DNA from: a virus
IMG/VR virus record: IMGVR_UViG_3300045747_000037
Coordinates: 1-49,722 of that record
Length of the DNA stretch: 49,722 nucleotides
Strand: one strand, 5' to 3'
Positions 2,718 to 23,649 of this stretch are shown here, in pieces. The notes below the pieces were generated by a model. The model made no database searches and was not told where the DNA came from. It was given only the letters and a program-made list of their open reading frames with translations. Numbering within the stretch: the stretch's first letter is position 1; each line of letters starts with the position of its first letter. A program made the translations under genes and the position numbers.

Positions 2718-2719
2718 TT

Positions 2720-4795
2720 ATGCTAAACCTCAAAGAGAAGTTTAAGTTGGAAGAGTTGGTCTTTGAGACCAACATTGCCAAGATCATGTGCAAGGAGGAC
2801 CTTAATGCCATTGGTTCTCAAGTTGTCAGGGACTATGACAATGATCTTCTCTCAAGGTCTTCATGGGAAAAGAGAACCGAAGCCTCATTGAAGTTAGCTC
2901 TTCAGGTAGCCGAGACCAAGAACTTTCCTTGGCCCAATGCTTCCAATGTCAAGTTCCCCCTTATCACTATTGCTGCACTGCAATACCATGCTCGTAGCTA
3001 CCCTGTCCTGATTGACTCCGATCTTCCTGTCAAATGTCGTGTGATTGGTGCTGACAAGGAAGGTTTGCGTAAACTTCGTGCAGAGCGTGTTGAAACACAC
3101 ATGAGCTACCAACTCCTAGAGGAAGACGAGGATTGGGAATCTGAGATGGATAAGGTTCTCATCACACAGCCTATCGTTGGTTGTGCTTTCAAGAAGACCT
3201 ACTTTGATCCAATCAAGAAGCACAATGTCTCTGAGAACGTTCTAGCTAAGGACTTGGTTGTTAACTATTGGACCAAGAGCTTAGAGACTGCACCTCGTAT
3301 TACCCATGTCCTTCAGATGTCCACCAATGAGATCTATGAGCGTACTGCTCGTGGTTTATGGGTGGAAGGCATTCAAGAGGGCAGACAACAACAAGCAGCT
3401 TCTATCCTAGCGACTAGTGGCTTACAAACAGCACAAGACAAGGCACAAGGTCTTTCTCCTCCAGAACCAAACGACTCTAGCACTCCCATTGAGATCCTAG
3501 AGCAACACTGCTCAATAGACTTGGATGATGATGGCTATGAAGAGCCTTACATTGTCTATGTACGCAAAGACAACAAGAAGGTAGCTCGTATTGTTGCTAG
3601 GTTCATTGACATTGACATTGACAGAGATGACAAGGGAGTTGTCCTCTCAATCAAAGCGGAGCAGTACTTCACCAAGTACCCATTCATTCCTTCTCCTGAT
3701 GGTGGCTTCTATGACTTGGGTTTTGGTATGTTGCTTGGTCCTCTTAATGAGTCTATCAATACGATCATCAATCAACTGGTTGATGCTGGAACTATGGCTA
3801 ATACGGCGGGAGGTTTCCTTAGCCGTGGCATCAAGCTTCGTGGTGGTAATTACACTTTCAATCCTATGGAGTGGAAGCATGTGGATACCACAGGTGATGA
3901 CCTCCGTAAAGGCATCGTTCCACTTCCTGTACGTGAACCTAGTCAGGTACTATTTACCCTCTTGAATCTTCTGATCAACTACGGTGAGAGGGTAGGTGGC
4001 TCCGTAGACATCCTTACTGGTCAGAACCCCGGACAGAACACTCCTGCCGAGACTACCCGCACTATGGCAGAGCAGGGTATGAAGATCTTCAATGGGATCT
4101 TCAAGCGTACCTACCGTTCTCTCAAGCAAGAGTTCCGTAAGCTTTACCGCTTGAATCAGATCTTCATTACCGAGAACACCGAGTACGTAACCAACGCTGA
4201 AGGTGAAGGTATGGTCTTGGCTATTGACTATGAAGGTCCTGTCACTGATGTCATGCCAACTGCTGACCCAAGTATCACCTCTGATGCTCAACGTTCTAGG
4301 CAAGCCATGATCGTTGCTGACCGTACTGCCAATACTCCGGGCTTGTACAACCGATACGAAGCTGAGAGGATGATCCTCAAAGCTGCCAAGATTCCTGACA
4401 TTGACAAGGTGCTTCCAGATCCGAAGAGTCCGAATGCTGTTCAACCTCCTCCAAATCCGAAGCTACAGATTGAGCAGATGAAGATGCAAGCCAAGCAAGC
4501 TTCTGATCAGCTTGACATGAAGCTTGGTCTGTTGGAACTAATGAGTAAGGTTGAACTACAACAAGCTCAGATCAAGAAGCTAGAAGCAGAGGCAGAAGCA
4601 ATCAAGATTGGTGTTATTACCGAAGGTGAACAGATGCGCCTCAACAAGATCAATACGGAGATCGCTATGCAGCGTGAGCGCCGTGATGGTGTCTTGAGTT
4701 CCATACAGACCATGAACAGTGTGTATGAGACCATGATGAAAGGCCAACAGATGCAGATAGATGCAAAGGAGGCCAGTAGTGCAACTAAACCTTAA
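2720..4795 (+). CDS. Portal protein
   Basis: A roughly 690-aa ORF immediately after terL, with the size and position typical of a portal and a charged coiled-coil C-terminus. ATG 2720 is preferred over TTG 2714. Confidence 0.75.
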   Translation: MLNLKEKFKLEELVFETNIAKIMCKEDLNAIGSQVVRDYDNDLLSRSSWEKRTEASLKLALQVAETKNFPWPNASNVKFPLITIAALQYHARSYPVLIDSDLPVKCRVIGADKEGLRKLRAERVETHMSYQLLEEDEDWESEMDKVLITQPIVGCAFKKTYFDPIKKHNVSENVLAKDLVVNYWTKSLETAPRITHVLQMSTNEIYERTARGLWVEGIQEGRQQQAASILATSGLQTAQDKAQGLSPPEPNDSSTPIEILEQHCSIDLDDDGYEEPYIVYVRKDNKKVARIVARFIDIDIDRDDKGVVLSIKAEQYFTKYPFIPSPDGGFYDLGFGMLLGPLNESINTIINQLVDAGTMANTAGGFLSRGIKLRGGNYTFNPMEWKHVDTTGDDLRKGIVPLPVREPSQVLFTLLNLLINYGERVGGSVDILTGQNPGQNTPAETTRTMAEQGMKIFNGIFKRTYRSLKQEFRKLYRLNQIFITENTEYVTNAEGEGMVLAIDYEGPVTDVMPTADPSITSDAQRSRQAMIVADRTANTPGLYNRYEAERMILKAAKIPDIDKVLPDPKSPNAVQPPPNPKLQIEQMKMQAKQASDQLDMKLGLLELMSKVELQQAQIKKLEAEAEAIKIGVITEGEQMRLNKINTEIAMQRERRDGVLSSIQTMNSVYETMMKGQQMQIDAKEASSATKP

Positions 4796-4804
4796 GGAGT
4801 AAGT

Positions 4805-5041
4805 ATGGCAATTGAGATAGCGACAGAGGAAGCGTTTGAAGAGTGGAAGTACCACCCAATAACTCAGCGTCTTATGAAGATGCTCTTCTCGGATAGAGAA
4901 GCTATGAAGGAGGGGATTGTGAACAACGTCTTTGAGAACGCAGAAGAGGTTAAGGGTCGTTGTCGAGCCTTGGCTATCCTGTTGAACTTGGAGTACTCTG
5001 ACTTGGTTTCAATAGAGAGAGGTGATTCTTATGAGCAATGA
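4805..5041 (+). CDS. Hypothetical small head-module protein
   Basis: SD AAGGAG 8 nt upstream, with no competing frame. Confidence 0.6.
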   Translation: MAIEIATEEAFEEWKYHPITQRLMKMLFSDREAMKEGIVNNVFENAEEVKGRCRALAILLNLEYSDLVSIERGDSYEQ

Positions 5042-5381
5042 ATCAGGCATTAACCCTGTTGGTTGGAGAATCTTGATCAAGCCAAAGGAGATCATGGAGA
5101 AGTCTGCTGGTGGCATTATCTTGGCTACCGAGTCCACTAAGGAACGAGAGCAGATGGCTAACACTACAGGAGTTGTCATAGCAATGGGAGACCAATGCTA
5201 CCAAGACGAATCTACCCCGTGGTGTGTTGTTGGGGACAAAGTTATCTTTGCAAAGTACGCTGGGCTACTCTATACGGGTGGAGATGGTGAGAAGTATCGC
5301 ATTGTCAACGACAAAGACATTGTTGGAACACTAGATGCTTCTGTAGACCTAGTTGATCCGTACCTAGCTAGGGGGCAATGA
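5031..5381 (+). CDS. GroES/Cpn10-like co-chaperonin
   Basis: GWRILIKPKEIMEKSAGGIILATESTKE...VGDKVIFAKYAG...YRIVNDKDIVGTL is collinear with GroES (RVIVKR...KSAGGIVL...VGDIVIF...ILIMSESDILAIV). ATG 5031 is preferred to GTG 5022. Confidence 0.7.
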   Translation: MSNESGINPVGWRILIKPKEIMEKSAGGIILATESTKEREQMANTTGVVIAMGDQCYQDESTPWCVVGDKVIFAKYAGLLYTGGDGEKYRIVNDKDIVGTLDASVDLVDPYLARGQ

Positions 5382-5842
5382 TGTCTGAGACTCCAGAACG
5401 TAAAGCCTACATTAAAGAGTGGCAGGCTAGAAACAAAGACAGATGCCTAGAAACTAACAGAGCTTGGAAGCAACGTAACAAAGAGCATTGCCAAGCATAC
5501 TTCAAAGAGTGGGCCAAAAGTAATCCAGAGGTATTTGCTGCTTCTCATGTTAAGGCGACAGAATCCTACCGTAAAAGGAATACTGCTGCCTACTCTGCCT
5601 ATGCTGCTAAACGTAGAGCATTGGAACTAAAGGCTACTCCTAATTGGGCTAACCTTGCTGCGATTGAGATTGAGTACAAGTTGTCTGCTTGGTGCTCTAG
5701 TGTGATGGGACAACAGTACCATGTTGACCACATCATCCCACTCAAAGGAAAAAACGTTTGTGGATTACACGTAGAGAGCAACCTACAAGTGATTCCTGCT
5801 AGAGTAAATCAAAGCAAACACAACAAGTTTGTTGCTGCATAA
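5378..5842 (+). CDS. HNH endonuclease (free-standing, homing-type)
   Basis: HVDHIIPLKGKNVCGLHVESNLQVIPARVNQSKHNK is an HNH core. ATGA overlap with the upstream gene. Confidence 0.8.
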   Translation: MMSETPERKAYIKEWQARNKDRCLETNRAWKQRNKEHCQAYFKEWAKSNPEVFAASHVKATESYRKRNTAAYSAYAAKRRALELKATPNWANLAAIEIEYKLSAWCSSVMGQQYHVDHIIPLKGKNVCGLHVESNLQVIPARVNQSKHNKFVAA

Positions 5843-5852
5843 GGAGATAGAC

Positions 5853-6695
5853 ATGGCTGACACACAAACAGATGTTACTAGTAACGAAACACCCCCAGAG
5901 GTCCTGCATGAAGCAGAGTCTCAAGGCTGGGTGCCAAAGGATCGTTATCGAGGTAACGAAAAGGATTGGGTAGACGCAGAGACCTTCGTTAAGCGTGGTC
6001 GTGAGATCCTTCCAATCCTCAAAAAGAACAATGAGAACCTAGTCCGTGATTTGAATCAGACTAGGGAACAACTCAAAGAATTTCGTGAAGCTGCGGAAGA
6101 GTTCAAGAAGTTCCAGCGTGAGTCTTACGAACGTAAGGCAGCAGACTTTGAGGCTCAGATCAAAGCAATCAAGGAGAGCCGTGCTCAAGCCATTAGTGAT
6201 GGTGATGGGCAAAAGGTCAATGCCTTGGATGATGCCCTCGACACAGCCAAAGACAATCTCAAGGAAGCTAAACAAGCCGTTAAGGATGTTGTTAGCACTC
6301 CTGTTGTTGAAGCTCCTTCTTCGGCTAATCTTGATCCAAACTTACAAACGTGGCTAAATAGCAACGATTGGTTTGGGGTTGATAAGCGCATGACAGGCAT
6401 TGCCAATGGCATTGGTGAGAGCCTTCGCATTGAGTTTCCAATGCTCAAAGGACAGGCTTTCTTGGAAAAACTTGATGAGGTTCTGGCAGAAGAGTTCCCC
6501 AACAAGTTTGGCAAAACAACCAAACGGGCTGCTGGTTCACCTGTTGAATCTGGTTCTGGAAGACAAGGCCGTGGTAGCTCTAGCTCCAAGTCTTACGACA
6601 ACCTTCCCTCTGACGCTAAAGCAGCTTGCGATAAATTCGTTCGTCAAAAACTAATGACCAAAGATGAGTACGTGCAAGCGTATGACTGGTCTTAA
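5853..6695 (+). CDS. Putative scaffolding protein
   Basis: Acidic, K/E-rich, coiled-coil-like sequence between portal and capsid genes. SD AAGGAG at 5841-5846 precedes ATG 5853. Confidence 0.55.
   Translation: MADTQTDVTSNETPPEVLHEAESQGWVPKDRYRGNEKDWVDAETFVKRGREILPILKKNNENLVRDLNQTREQLKEFREAAEEFKKFQRESYERKAADFEAQIKAIKESRAQAISDGDGQKVNALDDALDTAKDNLKEAKQAVKDVVSTPVVEAPSSANLDPNLQTWLNSNDWFGVDKRMTGIANGIGESLRIEFPMLKGQAFLEKLDEVLAEEFPNKFGKTTKRAAGSPVESGSGRQGRGSSSSKSYDNLPSDAKAACDKFVRQKLMTKDEYVQAYDWS
5874..5885. repeat. GTTACTAGTAAC palindrome, copy 3 (in the scaffold-like gene, read V-T-S-N)
   Basis: Exact string, in frame (DVTSNETP). Confidence 0.95.
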
Positions 6696-6710
6696 CTTAA
6701 AGGAAACATC

Positions 6711-7232
6711 ATGCCAAGAGCACTTACCGAGATGGAAAAGAGGGATCGTATGTACGAAAAGATTGAGGAACGCAAGGCTGCTTTGGTCTCTGGACCCCCT
6801 GCTGCTGACGGAGCTACCCGCAAGCGTAGGAACATCTTTAATGGCACCGAATTAAAATTAGGTGTACGAGAACAGATTCCGGGGTATCATCTGCACATCT
6901 TTACGGATACGGGAACTCGTGTCCAAGAAGCCATTGATGGTGGATGGGAGTTTGTTACCCCTTCTGAAATCGGTGGGATTAGTGAGAATGTGGTCAGTCG
7001 TAATGGCGACCTAGGAGAAAGAATCAGGTACCTTGTTAACCCCCGTACTGGTGAAGGTACGGACAAGTTCGGATACTTGATGAAGATTCGGCAAGAGTGG
7101 TACGAGGAAGATCAAGCTGAACTTCAAGTTAAGAACAGTCAGGTTGATGCAGCTATCAAGCGTGGCAAGATTACTGGGGAAAACCCTAGCTTCTATGTCC
7201 CGAAGGGCGGCATTAGCATGAAACAAACGTAA
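6711..7232 (+). CDS. Hypothetical head-module protein
   Basis: SD AAGGA upstream and a clean single frame. No motif recognised. Confidence 0.65.
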   Translation: MPRALTEMEKRDRMYEKIEERKAALVSGPPAADGATRKRRNIFNGTELKLGVREQIPGYHLHIFTDTGTRVQEAIDGGWEFVTPSEIGGISENVVSRNGDLGERIRYLVNPRTGEGTDKFGYLMKIRQEWYEEDQAELQVKNSQVDAAIKRGKITGENPSFYVPKGGISMKQT

Positions 7233-7251
7233 TCTTTCTTAGGAGTTTTTT

Positions 7252-7920
7252 ATGGCACTGATCAATAAGCCTTCTGGCTTTAGCCCCGTACGCAGTCTAT
7301 TGGCTGGTGGGTTCAATGAACAAGGGACGTTGTACGCCATCCCTACCGCCGACACAACTAACAGCTATGCTATTGGTGATGTCGTTATGTCCCGTGCTAG
7401 TTCTGATGCTAACGGTATCCGTTACGTTCAGAAGTGGGGCGGTGCAACCACTACCTCTGCTTTGCCTCTCGGTATCATTGTTGGTATCCGTGTAGCTGAT
7501 CCGGGCGTTAGCTTGGTTGGTACTGCTCTATCATTAGAACAAACATACATTGCCGCAGGCACTCGTACTAACGTACGTTACGTCTACGTTGTGGATGATC
7601 CGTTTGTTGTATTTGAAGCCCAGTTCGACTCTACAGGTCCCACTCAAGCCCAGTTGTCTTTGAATGCTGCCGTGACTATCTCGGCTGCTAATCAGACTTC
7701 TTTGGCTCCAAGTGCTCCGTTCTCGGACATGGTGCTCACTGGTCCTGCTGTGACCGCTACTTTGCCAATCCGTATGTTGGGTGCTTCACAGCGTCCTGAA
7801 AACGTGCTGAATGGTTCTTCCGCTACTCCTTACATTCGTGTTCTGTGCAAATGGAACTACCACGAATACGGGGTTATCGGTTCTGCCTCTGGCACTGTTG
7901 TCAACTACCTCGCTGTTTAA
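7252..7920 (+). CDS. Hypothetical virion protein (possible capsid accessory/decoration protein)
   Basis: SD AGGAG upstream, sits directly before the major capsid gene. Function not recognisable. Confidence 0.6.
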   Translation: MALINKPSGFSPVRSLLAGGFNEQGTLYAIPTADTTNSYAIGDVVMSRASSDANGIRYVQKWGGATTTSALPLGIIVGIRVADPGVSLVGTALSLEQTYIAAGTRTNVRYVYVVDDPFVVFEAQFDSTGPTQAQLSLNAAVTISAANQTSLAPSAPFSDMVLTGPAVTATLPIRMLGASQRPENVLNGSSATPYIRVLCKWNYHEYGVIGSASGTVVNYLAV

Positions 7921-7932
7921 GGAGAACATATC

Positions 7933-8853
7933 ATGGCAGGCGTAATCACAACCGCATCGCATCCCAAGGCACTATGGCCCGGTATCAAGGCTTGGTGGGG
8001 ACAGACCTACAATGAACATCCTGAAGAGTACTGCGACATCTTTGATAAAGATACTTCTACGCAGAACTACGAAGAAGATGTTCAACTGTCTGGGTTTGGT
8101 CTTGCACCAATCAAGTCCGAAGGTGCTGGCATAGCATACGACTCGGAAATCCAAGGCTTCGTTACTCGGTACACCCACGTTGCTTACGCAATGGGGTACA
8201 TCGTGACCAAAGAAGAGATGGATGACAACCTGTATGAACAGGTCTCCAAGAAACGTGCTGCTGCATTGGCAATGTCTTTCCGTCAAACGAAAGAGAACGT
8301 TGCAGCTAACATCTACAACCGTGCTTTTAATGCTACCTACCTTGGTGGTGATGGTGTGCCTTTGGCTTCCACTGCTCACCCCAACACCTCTGGTGGTACA
8401 TGGGCTAACAAGCCTGCGGTAGATGTGGACTTGTCTGAAGCTGCTTTGGAAGATGCAGTGATCGCAATCATGGGTCTCCAAAATGACCGTGGTTTGTTGG
8501 TTGCTATCCAACCAAATAGCTTGCACATTGCTCGTCAAGAGTTGTTCAATGCCCAACGCATTCTGCACAGCACTTACCAGACTGGCAATGCCAACAATGA
8601 CATTAACGTTATCAAGTCAGGTAACTACCTGCCGGGTGGCTTTAAGGTCAACCACTACTTCACAAGCCCCCACGCTTGGTTTATCCGTAACACCATCCCC
8701 GGTGGTACTGGTATGAAGTACTACGAACGTCATGCCATTGCCTTTGACCAAGACAATGACTTCGACACAATGAACGCCAAGGCCAAAGGCTACGAGCGTT
8801 ACTCATTCGGCTGGAGTGATCCTCGCGCTGTTTGGGGGGTGAATGGACCGTGA
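7933..8853 (+). CDS. Major capsid protein (Mu gpT-like pattern)
   Basis: 306 aa. The N-terminal pattern ...YCDIFDKDTSTQNYEEDVQLSGFGLAPIKSEGAGIAYDS...EEMDDNLY resembles my recollection of the Mu gpT family. SD AAGGAG upstream, followed by an intrinsic terminator. Confidence 0.7.
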   Translation: MAGVITTASHPKALWPGIKAWWGQTYNEHPEEYCDIFDKDTSTQNYEEDVQLSGFGLAPIKSEGAGIAYDSEIQGFVTRYTHVAYAMGYIVTKEEMDDNLYEQVSKKRAAALAMSFRQTKENVAANIYNRAFNATYLGGDGVPLASTAHPNTSGGTWANKPAVDVDLSEAALEDAVIAIMGLQNDRGLLVAIQPNSLHIARQELFNAQRILHSTYQTGNANNDINVIKSGNYLPGGFKVNHYFTSPHAWFIRNTIPGGTGMKYYERHAIAFDQDNDFDTMNAKAKGYERYSFGWSDPRAVWGVNGP

Positions 8854-8885
8854 CGGTATAGGGACAACACAACCCTAAATAGTGC

Positions 8886-8914
8886 TTGACACTAAAGAAC
8901 CTCCTAGCTAGACT
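8886..8914 (+). promoter_or_regulatory. Candidate sigma70-like promoter (TTGACA - 17 nt - TAGACT) upstream of the second HNH gene
   Basis: Perfect -35 hexamer at 8886-8891 and TAnnnT at 8909-8914. It overlaps the terminator hairpin. Confidence 0.25.
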
Positions 8915-8937
8915 TAGGTCTCCTAGGAGGTATTTTT
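8899..8937 (+). terminator. Rho-independent terminator after the capsid gene. Its 3' arm contains the SD of the next gene.
   Basis: The 9-bp stem ACCTCCTAG (8899-8907) / CTAGGAGGT (8923-8931) is followed by ATTTTTA. Confidence 0.6.
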
Positions 8938-9531
8938 ATGTCTAAAAAGGCTGGTAAAGAGAAACATCCTTTGTTTAACTCATGGTCCCACTACAAACGT
9001 AAAGGGTACCTAACAGATAGGTGGAAAGACTTCTATCTGTTTGTAGAGGACGTTGGTGAGAGACAAGAGGACCACAGGCTAGTCATCACATGGGATGATA
9101 GAGGCATGTCTTGGAAGTGGGTTGAAGTAAAACAGAAACTCATGGACTATGAAAGTAAAACTGCTTATCAGAGAGAGTACATGAGGCGTAACCCAGATAA
9201 GCAAAAGAGTGCTGACCTCAAAAAGCATTTTGGAATAACGCTTGAAGAGTACCGGGGCAAACAAAAAAAGCAGGGTAATGTGTGTGCCATCTGTGGAAAC
9301 CCAGAGTGGACTATGGACAATAGGCTACAACGACCTCGTGAGCTATCTGTAGACCACAACCACAAAACACGACAGATCCGAGGCCTCTTGTGTCGAGGAT
9401 GCAACCAAGGCATCGGTAACTTCCAAGAAGATTTACAGCGGCTCAAAAAGGCTGTACATTACCTAGAATCCTTTGAGGTCTCTAAGGATGTTATTAGTAA
9501 CATGGAGAATGTTCCACATGAAACAATTTAA
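8938..9531 (+). CDS. HNH / endonuclease VII-type homing endonuclease
   Basis: CAICGNPE...LSVDHNHKTRQIRGLLCRGCNQGIGNF is a typical recombination endonuclease VII / HNH zinc-finger core. Confidence 0.8.
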   Translation: MSKKAGKEKHPLFNSWSHYKRKGYLTDRWKDFYLFVEDVGERQEDHRLVITWDDRGMSWKWVEVKQKLMDYESKTAYQREYMRRNPDKQKSADLKKHFGITLEEYRGKQKKQGNVCAICGNPEWTMDNRLQRPRELSVDHNHKTRQIRGLLCRGCNQGIGNFQEDLQRLKKAVHYLESFEVSKDVISNMENVPHETI

Positions 9532-9541
9532 GGAGAGCAAC

Positions 9542-9613
9542 ATGGGCTTTGAACAACAAGCAGCTAAAGGCAAGCGTCCTGATCCCGGAAAAATCCCCCC
9601 AAAGAACAAATGA
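9542..9613 (+). CDS. Possible 23-aa micro-ORF (MGFEQQAAKGKRPDPGKIPPKNK)
   Basis: SD AAGGAGAG lies just upstream of ATG 9542. It is below the ORF-track cut-off and has no other support. Confidence 0.2.
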   Translation: MGFEQQAAKGKRPDPGKIPPKNK

Positions 9614-9639
9614 GAGAGTAGAATCCCTCTTACCCAATG

Positions 9640-9675
9640 ACGATCTATGCAAAGTAGATCGTTGATTTAATCAAC
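9640..9675 (+). promoter_or_regulatory. Two adjacent hairpins upstream of gene 9692
   Basis: ACGATCTA (9640-9647) pairs with TAGATCGT (9655-9662), and GTTGAT (9661-9666) pairs with ATCAAC (9670-9675). Confidence 0.45.
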
Positions 9676-9691
9676 GTCAAAGGAGTTTTAA

Positions 9692-10465
9692 ATGGCCGCA
9701 CCCACACGCTTCCCCAATGGTGTATCTACACAACCTGTTGGATATAACCTTGGAATGTATCCCCAACCAGATCCAACAGAAGTAGCAACTGACTTCGATG
9801 ACTTTGCTAATTACGTTGCTGCTGATTGGACTGTTACCAATACAACCACACATCAAACCATTGGCTTAGTTGCTGGTGCTGGTGGCATTATCTCTAGTGT
9901 AGGTGGTGGCTCTTCGGTAGCCAATGATATTGGTGCCATCATTGCCAACCCACTCAACTTCAATCTGCCAGCTAATACTGTGTCTGGTACCTATCCACCC
10001 ACTGCTAAAGCTTGGTTCTATAGTGCCTTTAAAGCAACTACCGCTTTGAATGATCAACTCCAGATTGGTGTTACTTCTGCCAATGCTGCATTGACTCCTA
10101 CTGATGGCATCTACTTCAACAAAGCTGCTGCTGCTAATACGATTCAATTCGTAGTCCGTAAGGGTAGTGCTTCTCTTGCTGCTACTGCTTACTCTACAGG
10201 TACCACTACCATAGCTACTCTAGCTAATGCTACCTTCTTAGAGTTGGGCTGGTACTACGATGGCACTGGAAACATCGATGTGTTTGTCAATGAACAAAAG
10301 GTTTGTTCTGTAGATGTGGGTCAAGCTTCTGGAACTGTTGCTGCTACCTTCCCGGTTGCTACGGCACTTGGACATGGGTTTGGTATCAAGGCTTCTGCTA
10401 CTGCTCCAACAACGGCAGACATGGTTGTTGACTTCATGCTGACTGCCCAGACTCGTCCTTACTAA
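9692..10465 (+). CDS. Virion structural protein (function unassigned)
   Basis: SD AAGGAG upstream, A/T/G-rich beta-type composition, located in the structural block. Confidence 0.6.
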   Translation: MAAPTRFPNGVSTQPVGYNLGMYPQPDPTEVATDFDDFANYVAADWTVTNTTTHQTIGLVAGAGGIISSVGGGSSVANDIGAIIANPLNFNLPANTVSGTYPPTAKAWFYSAFKATTALNDQLQIGVTSANAALTPTDGIYFNKAAAANTIQFVVRKGSASLAATAYSTGTTTIATLANATFLELGWYYDGTGNIDVFVNEQKVCSVDVGQASGTVAATFPVATALGHGFGIKASATAPTTADMVVDFMLTAQTRPY

Positions 10466-10477
10466 TAGGAGTAGCAC

Positions 10478-10885
10478 ATGGCTAATTCCTACGCTGTTCA
10501 GATCATCTCAGATGGTCCACGCAATGCGATTGTCAAGCTTACGGGTGTCTTAGACACCTCTAATCTTGCTCAATCGCTTGCAGTGGACTTGAGTACTCTA
10601 TCCCCCATAGTTCCCGGAACTAACATCACCAAGCCTGCTGCTGTAGCTATCCACCATCTTGATTACTCTATTGCTGATCAGTTGGAAGTACAGCTAACAT
10701 GGGATGCTACTGCTCAAGTAGCTATCTTGCCTTTAGCAGGTCGTGGTCGTATGTCCTTTAAAGACTTTGGTGGCTTGCAAAACAATGCTGGTGCAGGTAA
10801 GACTGGCAATATCAACATCACCACTACAGGTTGGGCATCGGGTATCCAAGTGTTCTCCGTAGTCTTAGAGATGGTCAAGCAATGA
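10478..10885 (+). CDS. Virion structural protein (function unassigned)
   Basis: SD AGGAG upstream and a clean frame in the structural block. Confidence 0.6.
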   Translation: MANSYAVQIISDGPRNAIVKLTGVLDTSNLAQSLAVDLSTLSPIVPGTNITKPAAVAIHHLDYSIADQLEVQLTWDATAQVAILPLAGRGRMSFKDFGGLQNNAGAGKTGNINITTTGWASGIQVFSVVLEMVKQ

Positions 10886-10900
10886 TGAGGACATCCAACA

Positions 10901-11131
10901 ATGTCCTACGCTCACTATAACGTAGACGAAACACCACTCACTACCTTAGTTGATACCTCTGGTGGTACGGTCATCTACTTGGGGCAGTCTTTACCGGGGA
11001 CTGCTACCTCTGCCTTGTTGTGGAGGATTCAAAAGATAGACACTTCATCTGGTGTTCAGATGACTTACGCTAATGGCTCTCCCACCTTTCAAGTAGCTTG
11101 GGATAGCCGACTAACTTACGCCTACACATGA
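10901..11131 (+). CDS. Small structural-module protein
   Basis: Its stop overlaps the start of the next gene (ATGA at 11128-11131). Confidence 0.55.
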   Translation: MSYAHYNVDETPLTTLVDTSGGTVIYLGQSLPGTATSALLWRIQKIDTSSGVQMTYANGSPTFQVAWDSRLTYAYT

Positions 11132-13860
11132 GCGACTTTAAGATAGTCTCCCTCTTGAATCCCGTTCAGAATGTTTACAACATTTCTCAAACGGGTGTTG
11201 GTGTTGGAATCGAAGCAGGGATCTCTTCACAGACATCTGGGAACATCACACTAGGATCTTCTGCTGGTAACGTTACTTTTGGAATGCAGAATGGATACAT
11301 TACTGCTTCTGCTCCTAGTGGAGGAGGGGGTGGTTCCAATTATGTGTTCTCTAATGCCAATGGTGTTAGTTTTGGTACTCTAGGTTCTACTGTTACTGCC
11401 ACAGTAGCAACTAACTACATGGCTAGTAATCAGGCTAGCAACTTTCAGAGTGCTGGTGCATACCTAACCACTGCTGCTCAGAGTAATCACTCACACTCTC
11501 TAAACCAGATCCTCAACCCAACTGGGGATGTGTTCTTCTCGTTTAGTCAGAACCAACAGATTCAATTTCAGTTCTCCAACACCGGGACATTCACGACCAA
11601 CGCCAGTAAGCAGGCGATGTTTGAGATTGACATTCAAGGGAACCTTGTTGATGGTGCGGATGGCGTTCACATTCATCAATCTGACAATAACCCCAACATT
11701 GACTTGCTTCACATAGAGGCTTGGGGAACTAACGTCACAGGACTTCGGATCTCTGCATCTGCTTCCATAGCCGCTGAAATCAACAAGCCAATCAAGTTCG
11801 TAGGTACAGGTCTCCAGACTGCTTCTGTCCCAATGATCTTGCAGACAGGTATGACCAACTCGGTTCAGTACCTCAATGCTAACTTCTTGCAGGGTAAGGT
11901 CAGTAGTGAGTTCCAGAGCACTGGCGCTTACATAACTACAGCAGCCCAATCGAATCACAGTCATGCCTTTGCCACCACTACCACCAATGGTGCAGTCATT
12001 GTTGTTGGCACTACAAACAGTGCTGGAGCGACTATTGGAGTTCCTTCGTTCCTGACGACCTATGTGGGCCAGACTAATCAGACTGCTGCTAGTGGAAATA
12101 TAGCGGGAGTAGGAACTACATTTGCTGGAACTAATGTTACAGCTACGATGGCACTCAACAGTGCTGGCTTAGGGCTTAGCTTGTCTGCTGGTGCAGGGGG
12201 TGGAGGTGCTGATGGATATAACTCTGCTCAATTTACCAATAGCACTGCTAATAGCACTATGCCTCTCGTTTGGGCTGGCAATAGTAACGGTAGTGGCAAT
12301 GTCACCATCGGACTTACTGGCAGCACTATCACTATGTCTGCTGCTGGTGGGGGTGGTGCTGGTGATGGTTACAACATCCTTGGTGTCAATGTTGTTGCTA
12401 CATCTCTGTCTACGACTTATATCCTGAGCAATGCAAACAATGTGTCCTTTGGTTTGAACCTAGGGACTATCACTGCTAGTGCTTCGTATGTGAATGATCT
12501 AACCTCTGGCAGGGCTGGTGTAGGTTATACCTCTACTACTCAAGCTGGTGCTGTTGTCGGTGTTACTAATAACACTGCTGGCCTTAGCATGGCATGGCCT
12601 CCATTCCTTACGACTGCTGGTGCTACTAACGCATTGACAACAGCTAGAGCTAGTAACGATGCTCTTGGATTGAACACGGCTCTGACAGCTAACGGAGTAT
12701 CAATCACTGCTAACAGTTCTGGAGTGTCTTGGAACTTCCCTGCATTCCTAACCACGGCAGCACAATCAACCCACTCTCACAACTTTGCTACGACAGTTAC
12801 GGCTGGTGCAGTAGTCAATGTAGCTACAGCTAACAGTGCTGGTGTTACCGTGGGTATGCCAGCGTTTATTACAACCTACGTAGCACAGACGAATCAGACC
12901 GTAGCAAGTGGGAACATTGCAGGGGTTGGGACTACGTTTGCAGGGACGAACATTACCGCCACAATGGGCTTGAACAGCGCAGGTTTAGCACTTAGCCTAT
13001 CTGGTGCGGGTGGTGGGACAATCAACCAAACAGGTCCGAACATCGCTGTTGCCGGGTCTACCGTGACTTCTGGTGATGTTTACTTCTCCAACAGTCCTAC
13101 CGTGACCTTTGGGATGAATGGGTCAACTATCACTGCTAGTGCTGCGGGTGGTGGCGGTGGTGGTGGGGCTACGATCAACGGGTACGAACTGTTTCCCCCT
13201 CTTGGCGGTAACACAGCATTCAGTACGGGCGTGAATGGTACGCTGTACTTCCAGAAGTTCATTGCCCCGGCCAACATCGCATTCAGCAACTTTGAGCGTC
13301 GTTACTCAGGTTCCACGGTATCCAGTGCTATCAGCGCCCAAGCAGCACATTCGATTAGTTATGGACTGTATTCCAAGGGAACAGGCGCTAGCACTTCAAT
13401 CTACAACCTGATTGCATCAAGTAACTTTTTCATGCAAGCCAGCTACTCAAGCAACCTGAGTGCAGGACACACAGTAAGTGCAGGTGCAACCAGCTATACC
13501 AACTCAAGCGCAGGGACAGTTGGGCAAGGTAACTTGACAGGCTACAAGCACATGTACTTCCCGTTTGTGAGTACTTTAACTGCTGGAGTTGAATACGCCT
13601 ACGCTCAGATCGTGTCCTCTGCCACAACGGGTGCTACCGGGCCGCTGCGGATTGGTTTCCAAGAATTGTCAATCATCAACAACTTGACCATTGGCAAGAT
13701 TTACAACAGCACGGTAGCCGCTTCTAACGCAAGTTATGTTGGTGATTGGGCGCAGGGGGTTTATTCATCCTCATCCAATGGACTACCTAGCACCCTAGCT
13801 ATCAGTGGTTTGACCAATGCAGTTTCCCAGCAACGTATGTACCTACAACTCGACGCCTGA
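11128..13860 (+). CDS. Tail fibre-like protein, S/T/N/G/A-rich, with three AAQS(N/T)HSH motifs and an internal duplication of about 95 aa
   Basis: 910 aa of low-complexity fibre composition. It has poly-Gly hinges (GGGGG), repeats at about 11924-12215 and 12743-13020, and HSH motifs at about 11473, 11941 and 12757. Confidence 0.75.
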   Translation: MSDFKIVSLLNPVQNVYNISQTGVGVGIEAGISSQTSGNITLGSSAGNVTFGMQNGYITASAPSGGGGGSNYVFSNANGVSFGTLGSTVTATVATNYMASNQASNFQSAGAYLTTAAQSNHSHSLNQILNPTGDVFFSFSQNQQIQFQFSNTGTFTTNASKQAMFEIDIQGNLVDGADGVHIHQSDNNPNIDLLHIEAWGTNVTGLRISASASIAAEINKPIKFVGTGLQTASVPMILQTGMTNSVQYLNANFLQGKVSSEFQSTGAYITTAAQSNHSHAFATTTTNGAVIVVGTTNSAGATIGVPSFLTTYVGQTNQTAASGNIAGVGTTFAGTNVTATMALNSAGLGLSLSAGAGGGGADGYNSAQFTNSTANSTMPLVWAGNSNGSGNVTIGLTGSTITMSAAGGGGAGDGYNILGVNVVATSLSTTYILSNANNVSFGLNLGTITASASYVNDLTSGRAGVGYTSTTQAGAVVGVTNNTAGLSMAWPPFLTTAGATNALTTARASNDALGLNTALTANGVSITANSSGVSWNFPAFLTTAAQSTHSHNFATTVTAGAVVNVATANSAGVTVGMPAFITTYVAQTNQTVASGNIAGVGTTFAGTNITATMGLNSAGLALSLSGAGGGTINQTGPNIAVAGSTVTSGDVYFSNSPTVTFGMNGSTITASAAGGGGGGGATINGYELFPPLGGNTAFSTGVNGTLYFQKFIAPANIAFSNFERRYSGSTVSSAISAQAAHSISYGLYSKGTGASTSIYNLIASSNFFMQASYSSNLSAGHTVSAGATSYTNSSAGTVGQGNLTGYKHMYFPFVSTLTAGVEYAYAQIVSSATTGATGPLRIGFQELSIINNLTIGKIYNSTVAASNASYVGDWAQGVYSSSSNGLPSTLAISGLTNAVSQQRMYLQLDA

Positions 13861-14591
13861 TGGACCCACAAATTATTAGTAGTTATGACGGTGGTAAGCA
13901 CAATGCCGACCTGACGCAAACGATCAGTCGCCTATCGAAAGAGGGTGGGTACAAGGATTTGTCTTGCATCATGATCGTGCCTTGTTTCGGCTCTATTCCT
14001 ACGAAAGCGGTAGCCTCATGGATGAACCTGTACTCACCACCAAATGCAAAGTTTGTTCGATTGTTTGCTGTTGGGATGGAAGTGGGTTCTGCCTTTTCCA
14101 CTTGCATCGAGAGCATTCTGGCAAATCCAGAGCTATCGAAGTACAAGTACATCATCACGTTGGAGCACGACAATCTTCCACCTCCAGATGGCATAGTGAA
14201 GCTGCTGATGCGAATGGAGGCGAATCCCCATCTGTCATGCATTGGGGGACTGTATTTTACGAAGGGACCGGGAGGGTGTGCTCAGATCTGGGGAGATCCG
14301 AAAGACCCAGTGCTGAACTTCCGTCCACAACTCCCTATCCCTGAGACAGTGCAGGAGTGCTGTGGGACAGGGATGGGCTTCAACGTATGGCGGCTCAGTA
14401 TGTTTTCGGATAAGGCACTGCCTAGGCCACTGTTTGAAACGAAGACAAGCAATGGTGTAGCTACTCAGGACTTGGCTTTCTGGAGCAATGCTCGTAAGCT
14501 TGGCTATCGTTGTGCTATTGATACCAGTGTGAAGGTTGGTCATTACGATCTAGATGGAAAGGTAGGGGGCATCCCCGATATGACATGGTAA
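13860..14591 (+). CDS. GT-A fold (family-2-like) glycosyltransferase
   Basis: CIMIVPCFG (beta1), a TLEHDNLPPPDGIVKLL DxD-like region, GTGMGFNVWR, and TQDLAFWSNARKLGYRCAIDTSVKVGHY. The start overlaps the fibre stop (TGATG). Confidence 0.65.
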   Translation: MDPQIISSYDGGKHNADLTQTISRLSKEGGYKDLSCIMIVPCFGSIPTKAVASWMNLYSPPNAKFVRLFAVGMEVGSAFSTCIESILANPELSKYKYIITLEHDNLPPPDGIVKLLMRMEANPHLSCIGGLYFTKGPGGCAQIWGDPKDPVLNFRPQLPIPETVQECCGTGMGFNVWRLSMFSDKALPRPLFETKTSNGVATQDLAFWSNARKLGYRCAIDTSVKVGHYDLDGKVGGIPDMTW

Positions 14592-15139
14592 AGAAAATAC
14601 TAGCTCCCACTAAGCTTGACTTGGGATGTGGTTCCAAGAAGAAGGAAGGCTTTCACGGAGTAGACCAATACAAGATGGATGGTGTCGATACCGTCTTGAA
14701 GATTGGTTCTGCTAAGTGGCCCTTTGCGGATTCCTCTATTGAGGAAGCACACAGCTCTCATTTTCTGGAACACCTCACTGCATCGGAGAGGGTTCACTTT
14801 TACAATGAGCTTTACCGTGTGTTAAAACCGGGAGCTAGGGCTACCATAATCACTCCACATTGGGCATCAAACAGAGCCTACGGTGATCCCACTCATCAGT
14901 GGCCTCCCGTATCTGAAATGAGTTTCTACTATCTATCTAAAGAGTGGCGTTCAACTCAAGCACCACACACGGATATTAAATGGAACAAAGAAGGATTCTC
15001 TTGTGACTTCCAAGCTACTTGGGGGTATAGTTTCTCTCCTGAACTAGGCGCAAGGAATCAGGAGTACGTGCAGTTTGCTTTGTCTAACTACAAAGAAGCC
15101 TGTCAAGATCTCCATGCTACCCTAGTCAAACCTCTTTGA
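14585..15139 (+). CDS. Class I SAM-dependent methyltransferase
   Basis: Motif I LDLGCGS, then PFADSSIEEAHSSHFLEHL and YRVLKPGARATIITP (Methyltransf_11-like). Overlaps the glycosyltransferase gene by 7 nt. Confidence 0.75.
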   Translation: MVKKILAPTKLDLGCGSKKKEGFHGVDQYKMDGVDTVLKIGSAKWPFADSSIEEAHSSHFLEHLTASERVHFYNELYRVLKPGARATIITPHWASNRAYGDPTHQWPPVSEMSFYYLSKEWRSTQAPHTDIKWNKEGFSCDFQATWGYSFSPELGARNQEYVQFALSNYKEACQDLHATLVKPL

Positions 15140-15150
15140 AAGGACTCTTT

Positions 15151-15648
15151 ATGTTGACCCCTACCGACCTGTATGAAATCCGTAAGATCATTGTTGCGGC
15201 AAAACTCTTGGACTCTAAAGCCTTTGCTGCTGAAGTAGACAAGATGGAAGCTGCTGCTCAAGCTGCTACTGATGCTGGAGTAGCTGCTCTTGATGCTGCT
15301 AATGCTAAGGCAGTATCTCAAGCTGCTAAAGCCTATGATGAACTTGAGCTTAAAGAAGCGCAGCTTAAAGCTACTCAAGAAGACATTGCACAGCGTTCTG
15401 CACAGCTTGATATTAAGCAGGCAGAGTACAACAAGACTGCTGCTGAAGTAGGTGCCAAGCTTGATGAACTTGCTGCTACTTCTGTTCGTGTGCAAGAAGA
15501 GACCAATGCTCTTATTGCCAATGCTACTGCTAAGGCTGAAGAAGTAGCTAAGGCAGAACAACAACTTGCTGCCAGAGAATCACAGCTTGTACAAGCACAA
15601 GCTGACTTGGCTTCTAAGCTTGCTGCTCTTAAAGCAATTTCCGCTTAA
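15151..15648 (+). CDS. Ala-rich coiled-coil protein (structural or assembly)
   Basis: Long A/E/K/Q heptad-like sequence. ATG 15151 is preferred to TTG 15136. Confidence 0.6.
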   Translation: MLTPTDLYEIRKIIVAAKLLDSKAFAAEVDKMEAAAQAATDAGVAALDAANAKAVSQAAKAYDELELKEAQLKATQEDIAQRSAQLDIKQAEYNKTAAEVGAKLDELAATSVRVQEETNALIANATAKAEEVAKAEQQLAARESQLVQAQADLASKLAALKAISA

Positions 15649-15954: not shown

Positions 15955-16404
15955 ATGGGAATCAAGTTTGCAAATAACATTAGCACTACGCTAACTGTCT
16001 CTATCAATGCTGTTCAAACTAGCTTTGACATTGATAGTGTTGTAGGGATACCTGCACTAGGAGCTACAGATTACTTCTACGCCACTATAGTTGGACCCAT
16101 AAGTGGCTTGGAGATAGTTAAGGTTACAGGTGTTAGTGGTAATACAGTGACTTGTCTTCGTGGACAAGATGGCACTACTGCTCAAGCTTGGGTTAACAAT
16201 TCTAAGTTTGAGATGAGGGTTACAGCAGAGATACTTCGTGGATTTGGAAGCCCTTCATTAGGCATCTATTATGAGCATCTCAATACAGTGTCAACTAACG
16301 CAACCATAGCTTCTGGCAACAATGCTGTTAGTGCAGGACCAATGACAGTTAACTCTGGTATTACTGTGACAATTCCCCCCGGATCAACTTGGGCAATCGT
16401 ATGA
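15955..16404 (+). CDS. Tail fibre N-terminal (anchor)-like protein
   Basis: The pattern LEIVKVTGVSGNTVTCLRGQDGTTAQAW...RVTAEIL is common at fibre N-termini, as far as I remember. Confidence 0.55.
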   Translation: MGIKFANNISTTLTVSINAVQTSFDIDSVVGIPALGATDYFYATIVGPISGLEIVKVTGVSGNTVTCLRGQDGTTAQAWVNNSKFEMRVTAEILRGFGSPSLGIYYEHLNTVSTNATIASGNNAVSAGPMTVNSGITVTIPPGSTWAIV

Positions 16405-22158: not shown

Positions 22159-23649
22159 ATGTCCACCGAACGCATTGCTCTTACCCAACCAATAGAGACC
22201 AGAGATGGCACTCTAACTAAAGACTCTCGCTCTACCAACTGTGTCTTTGAGACAAGGGATCAGAAGAGAGAGTTTATTAAGCGTCCCGGTCTAGTGTACG
22301 AGACACAATTAGTAGCTGTCACTCCTCCTGCGTACAAACTAAACCAAGGTCTTACTAGCTTCAATAGTAAGCTAATTGGTGTTGTTGCTGATAGTGGTGG
22401 TGCGAGTAGTACTGTTTACTCATATAACCCTCTCACTTCAGTTCAAACAGCTATTGGATCTTTGTCAACTTCTCAATCATTCGTCTACTTTACAAAGACT
22501 CCATTAGATGCCAACCTGTTCTTTCACAATAAAGTATCTGGGTACTTGTACACAAGTGGTGGTGTTTTTAGTAGTCCTGCTACCCTTCCTCCCGGTCCTT
22601 ATGTAGCTGGTACTGCTTTTTTGGATGCCTTTGTGTTTATTGGTACTGCTAATAATCGTATCTACAATAGTGCTTATCAAGACCCCTCCACTTGGGATGC
22701 TCTTAGCTACATAGCCTTTGAACAGACTACCGACACGTTGGTAGCTATCACAAAGCACTTGAACTACATCGTTGCCTTTGGTAAGGCAAGCACTCAGTTC
22801 TTCTATGACAACGGTACCTACACATCAACCACGACTCCTTTAGCTGTAGCCCAGAGCTATACGACAGAGATCGGATGTGCTCAAGGTGATAGTGTGGTAT
22901 CTACGAACAACACTGTTGTTTGGATGGGGTACTCCAAGACCAATGGTAGGTCCATCTATGTGATGGATGGTGTATCACCTATTAAGGTATCAAATCACAG
23001 CATTGACAAGATTATTGACAAGGACTCCTTAAGCAAGGTGTCTTCTTTTGCTTATAAGTTTGCTGGACATACTTTGTATGTACTTACTCTCCATGAGAGC
23101 TTGGTAACTATCGTCTATGACTTAGATGAGAAGATGTGGTACCAATGGACACAGTACTCCATTATGTCTAATGATCAACCTAATCCGGGTACTTACCAAG
23201 AGTCTTACTTTAGACCAGCCTTCTATGCCCAAGTAAACAACATCTCTTATGTCTTGGATGATGACACTGCCACTGTGTACCACTTTGATAAGAATTCTTA
23301 TCAAGATAACTCTCAATCAATCTACTGTCGCACTGTTACGGACATAGGTGACAACGGTACAACAAAGAGAAAGTTTTATGGAAGACTTGAGATTGTTGGT
23401 GACAAGGTTAGTGGTATTATGCAGGTACGCCACAGCGGAGATGACTACAACACATGGTCTTCTTACCGTTCTATAGACCTTAGTGCTTCTCGATCCCAAG
23501 TCTATCTCAGTGGCGCAGATAGACGCAGAGCTTGGGAGTTCCTTGTTACTAGTAACGTTCCTCTCCGATTAGACGGAGCAGAGATTGACTTCCGCTTGGG
23601 AGAACTAGATCAAGAACAGAACGTGGGTGGCGGTAATTACCGCCGTTAA
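22159..23649 (+). CDS. Tail hub / P22 gp10-like protein
   Basis: 496 aa. SPIKVSNHSIDKII...GHTLYVLTLHESLVTIVYD and the C-terminal LRLDGAEIDFRLGE are collinear with my recollection of P22 gp10. Confidence 0.5.
   Translation: MSTERIALTQPIETRDGTLTKDSRSTNCVFETRDQKREFIKRPGLVYETQLVAVTPPAYKLNQGLTSFNSKLIGVVADSGGASSTVYSYNPLTSVQTAIGSLSTSQSFVYFTKTPLDANLFFHNKVSGYLYTSGGVFSSPATLPPGPYVAGTAFLDAFVFIGTANNRIYNSAYQDPSTWDALSYIAFEQTTDTLVAITKHLNYIVAFGKASTQFFYDNGTYTSTTTPLAVAQSYTTEIGCAQGDSVVSTNNTVVWMGYSKTNGRSIYVMDGVSPIKVSNHSIDKIIDKDSLSKVSSFAYKFAGHTLYVLTLHESLVTIVYDLDEKMWYQWTQYSIMSNDQPNPGTYQESYFRPAFYAQVNNISYVLDDDTATVYHFDKNSYQDNSQSIYCRTVTDIGDNGTTKRKFYGRLEIVGDKVSGIMQVRHSGDDYNTWSSYRSIDLSASRSQVYLSGADRRRAWEFLVTSNVPLRLDGAEIDFRLGELDQEQNVGGGNYRR
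23545..23556. repeat. GTTACTAGTAAC palindrome, copy 5 (in the hub gene, read V-T-S-N)
   Basis: Exact string, in frame (LVTSNVPL). Confidence 0.95.

Follow-up and report, generated by a model that had tools for sequence, protein, structure and literature searches.

A fibre-linked glycosyltransferase and methyltransferase gene pair in a podovirus-like phage and its possible role in fibre modification

The window analysed here is a stretch of 49,722 bp that is probably the whole contig of IMG/VR virus record IMGVR_UViG_3300045747_000037. Its variable host-recognition region carries an accessory cassette, spanning about 10.9-15.6 kb, in which a fibre-like gene is followed directly by genes for a glycosyltransferase (GT) and a class I S-adenosylmethionine (SAM)-dependent methyltransferase (MT). 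A preliminary description of this DNA had proposed that the two enzymes form a virion-glycosylation cassette coupled to the fibre. The open reading frames (ORFs) it gave for them, 13860-14591 and 14585-15139, were recovered as described, as were the TGATG junction between fibre and GT and the 7-nt overlap between GT and MT. The three genes and their main features are as follows.

11128-13860, + strand: fibre-like protein, 910 aa; the A that ends its TGA stop also opens the GT ATG (TGATG)
11467-11496, 11935-11964 and 12751-12780, + strand: three copies of the motif (Y/F)(L/I)TTAAQS-x-HSH (fibre aa 114-123, 270-279 and 542-551)
11893-12177, + strand: internal repeat module of the fibre, copy 1 (aa 256-350), containing TTAAQSNHSH
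12709-13002, + strand: internal repeat module of the fibre, copy 2 (aa 528-625), containing TTAAQSTHSH
13183-13860, + strand: C-terminal 'knob' domain, ~225 aa (aa 686-910), the conserved part of the fibre family
13860-14591, + strand: GT, 243 aa, soluble GT-A fold, from a phage-restricted family without a Pfam model
14163-14171, + strand: GT codons E102-H103-D104, DXD-equivalent motif, predicted to bind metal and nucleotide-sugar
14466-14474, + strand: GT codons Q203-D204-L205; D204 is the candidate catalytic base
14538-14549, + strand: GT codons G227-H228-Y229-D230; H228 is a candidate second metal ligand
14585-15139, + strand: MT, 184 aa, overlapping the GT by 7 nt (ATGGTAA)
14615-14632, + strand: MT codons L11-D-L-G-C-G16, SAM-binding motif I

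The two enzymes and the fibre-like protein

Searches at E<=1e-3 returned 5181 homologues of the GT, about 243 aa each and either named 'hypothetical' or unnamed, and 3361 of the MT. As nearly all are of equal length, both ORFs can be regarded as real genes. The starts of both agree with the conserved N-termini of their homologues, and the -1 and -7 nt overlaps were found again in related loci.

The GT had been called GT-A/GT2-like, and the first half of that label holds. Its AlphaFold2 model (pLDDT 84.5, pTM 0.82) has a GT-A fold, and a Foldseek search with the model gave 111 PDB matches at E<=1e-3, of which the 50 listed were almost all GT-A enzymes. The match to Pfam Glycos_transf_2 (E=0.009, 16.4 bits) falls below the gathering cut-off of 23.3, so 'GT2-like' is valid at the level of the fold only. 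The same model matched just 10 of 38 family members at E<=0.01, with a best E-value of 2e-4, and the precomputed Pfam column was '-' for every GT homologue listed. The sole PHROG match was an unnamed family at E=0.01, giving no usable assignment. The GT is a separate, divergent GT-A family outside Pfam GT2 as defined.

Among the fold matches listed, the best was A197 of Sulfolobus turreted icosahedral virus (STIV; 2c0n), with E 6.6e-10, a TM-score of 0.70 on the target and 17 % identity. Next came the GT domain of human LH3, SpsA, mimivirus R699, ColGalT1, B4GALNT1, POMGnT1 and ppGalNAcT2, and hyaluronan and heparosan synthases and RmlT were likewise listed. The top matches in BFVD were GT-A proteins from uncultured tailed phages, including a fusion of GT and FkbM-type methyltransferase. 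The single GT sequence found no match among PDB chains and the GT profile only a weak match to SpsA.

T100 and the three motifs E102-H103-D104, Q203-D204-L205 and G227-H228-Y229-D230 are invariant in 38-39 GT sequences. In the profile alignment H103-D104 lie over the Asp-Asp pair of SpsA, and distant members spell the motifs E-D-D, TQD and GH.D. E-H-D is a variant spelling, so metal use by the GT is putative. By analogy with GT-A enzymology, D104 and H228 would bind the metal and D204 would act as base, lying ~100 residues past the DXD-equivalent motif, the spacing of inverting GT-A enzymes. As the motifs are invariant and are kept in distant members, the catalytic apparatus of the GT looks intact. 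No membrane segments were found in either the GT or the MT.

An exhaustive profile search gave 1440 GT clusters at 50 % identity. Almost all were single-domain, and domain fusions within the family were dropped as a clue to the acceptor. The long members owe their length to an insertion resembling an intein, to an unrelated extension at the C-terminus or to coiled-coil extensions at the N-terminus. In one homologue of 562 aa (P0381), a ~320-aa intein-like, LAGLIDADG-type insertion sits within the conserved GG.AQIWGDP loop; inteins usually occupy conserved sites of important enzymes.

The class I assignment of the MT holds at the levels of family, fold and motif. The protein matches Methyltransf_11 (PF08241) with 26.5 bits, above the cut-off of 21.2, and all top PDB matches of its AlphaFold2 model (pLDDT 87) are class I MTs. 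Motif I has two invariant glycines, G14 and G16, with L11, D12 and C15 nearly invariant, and the acidic residue at the end of beta2 is the invariant D27 of G-V-D-Q. The second half is family-specific and conserved, with the pattern H92-W93...R97-x-Y99-G100-D101-x-T103-H104-x-W106-P107 (HW..RAYGDPTHQWPP). The MT sequence contains neither DPPY/NPPY nor a PC dipeptide, its lone PP standing in H-Q-W-P-P-V, and no DNA-MTase family appeared among the matches of the family scans. The enzyme identities proposed for GT and MT thus hold, that of the GT at the level of the fold. A homologue of the MT, 42 % identical over the SAM-binding half, is found in Paenibacillus phage PG1 (5959-6579), where no GT accompanies it and its neighbours are the last tail gene and the holin.

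The 910-aa protein is, as the preliminary description noted, very rich in S, T, N and G (12.2, 12.5, 9.0 and 13.2 %). It also has 12.7 % A, includes Gly runs, and has only 4.3 % charged residues (D+E+K+R). It matched no family in Pfam or PHROG, and as a single sequence it found no solved relative among PDB chains. We call it a putative fibre from its composition, repeats, HxH motifs and genomic position. HxH motifs are metal-binding and known in trimeric phage fibres. The two ~95-aa modules are visibly alike when set side by side; a self-BLAST of the fibre listed no off-diagonal match. The core motif (Y/F)(L/I)TTAA(Q/L)S is present in 15/84 GT loci vs 1/80 control loci. Homologues of the fibre are about 500-1550 aa long. 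The knob is always C-terminal in them, and lies at the very C-terminus in 68 of 120.

Linkage of fibre, GT and MT across phages

Gene order was compared in 84 loci carrying the GT, 80 from IMG/VR (of 482 positives) and the others from GenBank and ENA. The MT lay 3' of the GT in all 84, mostly overlapping it or tens of bases away and at most ~1 kb off. It was likewise 3' of the GT in all 6 loci from metagenome-assembled genomes (MAGs) long enough to judge. A fibre homologue was detected by tblastn in 53/84 GT loci, and the last 220 aa were related in 61 of 78 proteins upstream of the GT. The converse search, of IMG/VR with the knob only, gave 13 loci, every one with the GT directly downstream and then the MT. 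The profile for this search was a 7-sequence alignment, an 18-sequence version being too diverse for a pattern search. The co-occurrence of GT and MT with similar fibres in related phages, which the preliminary description had put forward as a check, is thus borne out from both sides.

Close relatives of the phage served as a deletion control. Relatives of the window's major capsid protein (MCP), at 88-94 % aa identity, were present on at least 599 stretches, of which 25 loci reach at least 6 kb past the MCP gene. All 25 are without the fibre, GT and MT and also without p76 and p170, the two small ORFs that flank them in the window. These loci keep p95 (23/25) and p257 (21/25), as well as p254 and Hc3 where the locus reaches that far.

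The three parts do not share one history. Identities of knob, GT and MT are discordant among loci (78/65/41 % in locus L176 and 49/70/88 % in L184), pointing to recombination inside the cassette. Two further loci (L002 8874-20732 and L003 3861-15722) are 99 % identical over 11.9 kb, starting from within the fibre gene, and their head modules are unrelated, with a Mu gpT-like capsid in one and an HK97-type capsid and ClpP protease in the other. This junction is either a mosaic in the fibre N-terminus or an assembly chimera. As the parts recombine and the triad nevertheless persists, functional dependence is a better explanation than mere shared descent. Taken together, these gene comparisons suggest that fibre, GT and MT are gained or lost as a unit and are functionally linked.

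In divergent loci, where the GT is ~60-65 % identical, the order is a long fibre, 1-3 small ORFs, a hypervariable ~230-aa protein, GT and MT. The gene for this ~230-aa protein runs 4 nt into the GT, and hhalign found no homology between these upstream proteins and the knob.

GT and MT are almost wholly confined to phage contigs. In 185,579 bacterial and archaeal species genomes the GT family was found on just 8 MAG contigs, which resemble phage DNA. A DNA-level search of the cassette against GenBank phages gave no match; at the protein level the only GenBank relative was the uncultured phage ctKR88 (MW202524). Around its homologous fibre (3120-11978) ctKR88 carries a GT2-TPR-GT4 protein of 770 aa, two more GTs (309 aa with no Pfam match, and 333 aa of GT4 type) and a second MT. 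Its cassette slot is a multi-step glycan assembly line. Extra GTs of this kind are rare elsewhere, occurring in one other locus (L028) as a large GT4-containing ORF just upstream of the fibre. In other phages GT and MT are fused, as in g90 of S-CRM01 and in the GT-FkbM protein from BFVD, and on this ground the two enzymes probably act on one product, a methylated sugar. The triad occurs in thousands of uncultured phages, which are probably aquatic; among the loci collected, one comes from a spring (Manatee Spring) and one from a groundwater MAG.

The phage and the surroundings of the cassette

Other annotated features of the window, including the two possible edges of the cassette, are listed here.

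1197-2717, + strand: terminase
2714-4795, + strand: portal
7933-8853, + strand: MCP
8938-9531, + strand: endonuclease VII/HNH-type ORF between the capsid gene and p257
10901-11131, + strand: p76, a small ORF with a 4-nt overlap with the fibre start; possible cassette member, e.g. a fibre adaptor
15151-15648, + strand: p170, a coiled-coil protein rich in alanine; the cassette may end with it
15955-16404, + strand: p149, with a tail-fibre N-terminal domain (phrog_8469)
22159-23649, + strand: P22 gp10-like 'stabilisation' protein (PHROG 'head closure Hc3')
31387-32733, + strand: 448-aa ORF directly after a 1789-aa virion-type protein
44412-47362, - strand: CobS-like AAA ATPase and CobT-like genes in the replication arm

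The + strand also holds a block of fibre- and spike-like genes after the MCP and, after Hc3, the 1789-aa protein and a lysozyme. On the - strand lies a T7-type replication module, with DNA polymerase A, a DnaB-like helicase, a Toprim primase, endonuclease I and a 5'-3' exonuclease. The window ORFs scanned include no integrase, tape-measure, tube or sheath protein. On this basis the phage can reasonably be regarded as lytic and podovirus-like; ctKR88 is likewise filed as Podoviridae sp. The defence and anti-defence models scanned gave no match.

The GT and MT genes are surrounded by fibre- and spike-like genes, including p149 and the beta-helix protein p552 (552 aa), in agreement with their earlier placement in a receptor-binding region. 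Inside the fibre-GT-MT block no promoter- or terminator-like signals stood out above background. As p76 was seen in just 4/84 GT loci, it is a backbone-specific end of the cassette. At the other end, the mechanical ORF of p170 opens at TTG 15136; the ATG at 15151 is preceded by AAAGGA, homologues begin MPLTPNDL/MTITAGNL, and ATG 15151 is the probable true start. Homologues of p170 come after the MT in two further loci (L052 and L065).

Four side observations concern other genes of the window. The endonuclease VII/HNH-type ORF is absent from 25/25 MCP relatives and for this reason is probably a homing-endonuclease insertion. The C-terminal ~55-aa piece of p149 is common to the C-termini of very large fibre families (phrog_34255, phrog_5342). 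The 448-aa ORF matches two domains of glycinamide ribonucleotide synthetase, ATP-grasp (GARS_A) and GARS_C, though below threshold. CobS/CobT-like pairs occur in several aquatic phage groups.

Possible targets of the enzyme pair and known systems

We put the probability that the GT and MT modify the phage's own fibre in the cytoplasm at roughly 50 %. In this scheme, a single late transcript would carry fibre, GT and MT, each stop codon overlapping the next start. Late in infection the GT would take a sugar from a common host nucleotide-sugar, probably using a metal held by the E-H-D motif and H228, and move it onto the newly made fibre or an associated knob protein in the cytoplasm. The MT would then methylate the transferred sugar, and the released virion would bear a methyl-glycosylated receptor-binding fibre. 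A common donor and a phage-borne acceptor are suggested by the lack of any sugar-nucleotide synthesis gene in the cassette and by the conservation of the GT across backbones. The order of the reactions is the likely one under this scheme, and the benefit may be stability, shielding or receptor tuning. A more specific version, in which the pair carries out an obligate maturation of one receptor-binding fibre class and the methyl-glycan serves folding or stability or forms part of the recognition surface, is tentative, and we would give it slightly less than even odds.

Several results weigh against a modified fibre, a proposal that is itself a genomic inference. The composition of the fibre does not single it out as an acceptor. 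The S/T/N/G richness stressed in the preliminary description is real, and an STNGA-rich (Ser, Thr, Asn, Gly, Ala) ORF lies upstream of the GT in 78/79 cases. This count loses its value because the fibres of cassette-less relatives are nearly as rich: STNGA amounts to 0.58 in proteins upstream of the GT vs 0.51 in fibre-like ORFs of those relatives, and S+T to 0.27 vs 0.25. The only clear difference is in charge (0.05 vs 0.10). Composition was accordingly rejected as evidence for an acceptor by this control. The hint of N-glycosylation also fell away, as N-x-S/T sequons number 27 vs 19.8 +/- 3.7 expected (z about 2) and the reversed pattern 22 vs 19.8, a marginal enrichment too weak to use. No single acceptor motif or C-terminal tag is shared by the proteins upstream of the GT; their recurring endings (RMYLQLDA, APAIMFINSTV, VPYFKIGAI and AW[IV]xA) probably just reflect terminal beta-strands. 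In divergent loci the unrelated ~230-aa gene adjoins the GT, so the acceptor may differ from the knob. Nor do the enzymes point to a protein-linked sugar. The GT aligns with protein-modifying GT-A enzymes at a TM-score of about 0.5-0.56 on the query, similar to its values for polysaccharide GT2 enzymes. Fold matches of the MT are generic, covering small-molecule, lipid and sugar MTs (RebM included). Its substrate class cannot be read from them, and this approach was given up with sugar, protein and lipid undistinguished. Finally, the same synteny is expected where a receptor-binding gene is tied to one that modifies the receptor.

That last arrangement is the basis of the main rival, in which the enzyme pair changes a glycan on the host surface (lipopolysaccharide, capsule or an S-layer glycan precursor) late in infection and so masks the receptor of the fibre, the benefit being less superinfection or fewer progeny lost on cell debris. 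It would explain the tight fibre-GT-MT linkage and the joint gain and loss, and llp of T5, a receptor-blocking gene, adjoins the receptor-binding gene pb5. GT2-type and Methyltransf_11-type enzymes are common in polysaccharide pathways, and the serotype of a host can be altered by phage GTs (PMC12619734). We nevertheless consider it unlikely. Neither enzyme has a membrane segment, the cassette lacks a flippase or other membrane partner, no integrase was found among the window ORFs scanned, and in contrast to seroconversion genes the family is near-absent from cellular genomes. The soluble enzymes, the missing lysogeny module and that near-absence all contradict a Gtr-type serotype conversion. 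Coupling to a late structural gene would also be late for exclusion. Moreover, the GT keeps 53-94 % identity even though the fibres and knob proteins beside it diverge past recognition, and the cassette crosses backbones; a phage-borne or generic acceptor fits this conservation better than host-specific glycans do.

A different virion target (the ~230-aa proteins, p170 or the capsid), or direct methylation of a protein side chain by the MT, is quite improbable in our view. The 4-nt overlap of a non-knob ~230-aa gene with the GT start in divergent loci speaks for it, as do the MT fold, which gives no substrate class, and the solitary MT homologue after the last tail gene of PG1, with no GT. Methylation of a tail protein also matters for the infectivity of a mycobacteriophage (PMC13445384). 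In the window, however, no ~230-aa gene separates fibre and GT, and GT-MT fusions elsewhere argue for one shared product. Because the MCP is equal in length and 88-94 % identical in cassette-less relatives, the capsid has no special acceptor extension. That the GT-like protein has lost its catalysis and serves as a chaperone of fibre assembly is very improbable. The idea draws on the site of its gene, which directly follows the fibre and overlaps its stop codon; genes for tail-fibre assembly classically lie there, and many fibre chaperones are encoded immediately downstream of the fibre with such an overlap. Residues of catalytic type are invariant over 38 sequences and kept in distant members, and the constant partner is a SAM enzyme with an intact motif I, all of which argues against it. 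The faintest candidate is modification of phage DNA against restriction, with the GT glycosylating and the MT methylating it. Glycosylation of DNA is the best-known GT role in lytic phages (PMC12619734, PMC12801897). The window ORFs scanned include no dCMP/dUMP hydroxymethylase or other base-hypermodification gene, and the MT lacks DPPY/NPPY and PC motifs; the earlier judgement that a DNA target is unlikely therefore stands. Both genes also lie in the late structural operon with the replication module on the other strand, and close relatives live without them, the loss following the fibre and not the replication genes.

Should the fibre prove to be the acceptor, environmental phages would commonly glycosylate their receptor-binding proteins after translation, and the phenomenon would be no mere mycobacteriophage curiosity. 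Host-range prediction from fibre sequences or structure models would then overlook glycans, and in phage engineering a fibre transferred without its enzymes may fail. The modification would bear on the resistance of virions to proteases, grazers and antibodies. It would represent a new GT-A family with a protein acceptor and, among tailed phages other than those of Actinobacteria, the first machinery devoted to glycosylating a fibre; the compact, soluble GT-A and MT pair could serve as a glyco-engineering tool. Even without a mechanism, the strict linkage of the triad annotates more than 5000 'hypothetical proteins'.

Phage GTs have three documented roles: they glycosylate DNA, convert the serotype of the host or glycosylate virions (PMC12619734). 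The last is known from mycobacteriophages, whose capsid and tail tube are glycosylated by phage GTs (Freeman et al. 2023, as cited in PMC12619734 and PMC12582341). There too the GT genes lie in or next to the structural operon, beside the gene for the presumed acceptor, and the enzymes act on the phage's own virion proteins inside the infected cell. The mycobacteriophage acceptors are the C-termini of capsid and tail-tube proteins in siphoviruses of Actinobacteria, whereas in the present podovirus-like aquatic phage the enzymes are linked to a fibre gene, the GT-A family is unannotated, an obligate MT partner is present and the system is known from its genes. No C-terminal acceptor extension of capsid or tail tube was found, the MCP being unchanged in length without the cassette and no tail-tube gene appearing in the window. 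The acceptor class would therefore differ if the system works alike. The closest fold match, STIV A197, has been proposed to glycosylate the capsid protein B345 in the cytoplasm with host donors, and is essential for the virus (PMC10551542). It is likewise a small, single-domain, soluble viral GT-A enzyme; it belongs to a different virus realm, has no partner MT, and its acceptor and donor are proposals.

Two-enzyme decoration also has a counterpart in giant viruses, where GT-A enzymes and sugar methyltransferases of the virus decorate external virion structures independently of the host glycosylation machinery. Chlorovirus A064R has GT and methyltransferase domains, and mimivirus fibrils bear glycans. 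Those viruses have eukaryotic hosts, large multi-enzyme pathways and their own sugar-nucleotide synthesis, in contrast to a two-enzyme set in a phage of ~50 kb. The closest analogy for how the cassette works may be bacterial adhesins with a dedicated cytoplasmic GT (AIDA-I/Aah, TibA/TibC and HMW1/HMW1C), in which glycosylation is needed for stability or adhesion. They share the arrangement of a gene for an S/T/N-rich, repetitive adhesive protein beside a gene for a soluble GT, which acts on that protein ahead of its export or assembly. Their GTs have other folds (the heptosyltransferase BAHT and GT41), neither of which was among the 50 fold matches listed for our GT, and no methyltransferase takes part. 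GtrABC seroconversion also ties phage GT2-type enzymes to host recognition, though through membrane proteins of temperate phages acting on lipid-linked O-antigen, features absent here. DNA glucosylation by the T4 alpha- and beta-GTs involves a hydroxymethyl-pyrimidine pathway and a position in DNA metabolism, and the cassette has neither. The open-access full-text literature yielded no description of tailed-phage fibre glycosylation or of this cassette. Viruses that glycosylate their own virion proteins are thus known; judged from the genes, the enzyme family, the acceptor class and the fixed pairing of GT with MT would be new.

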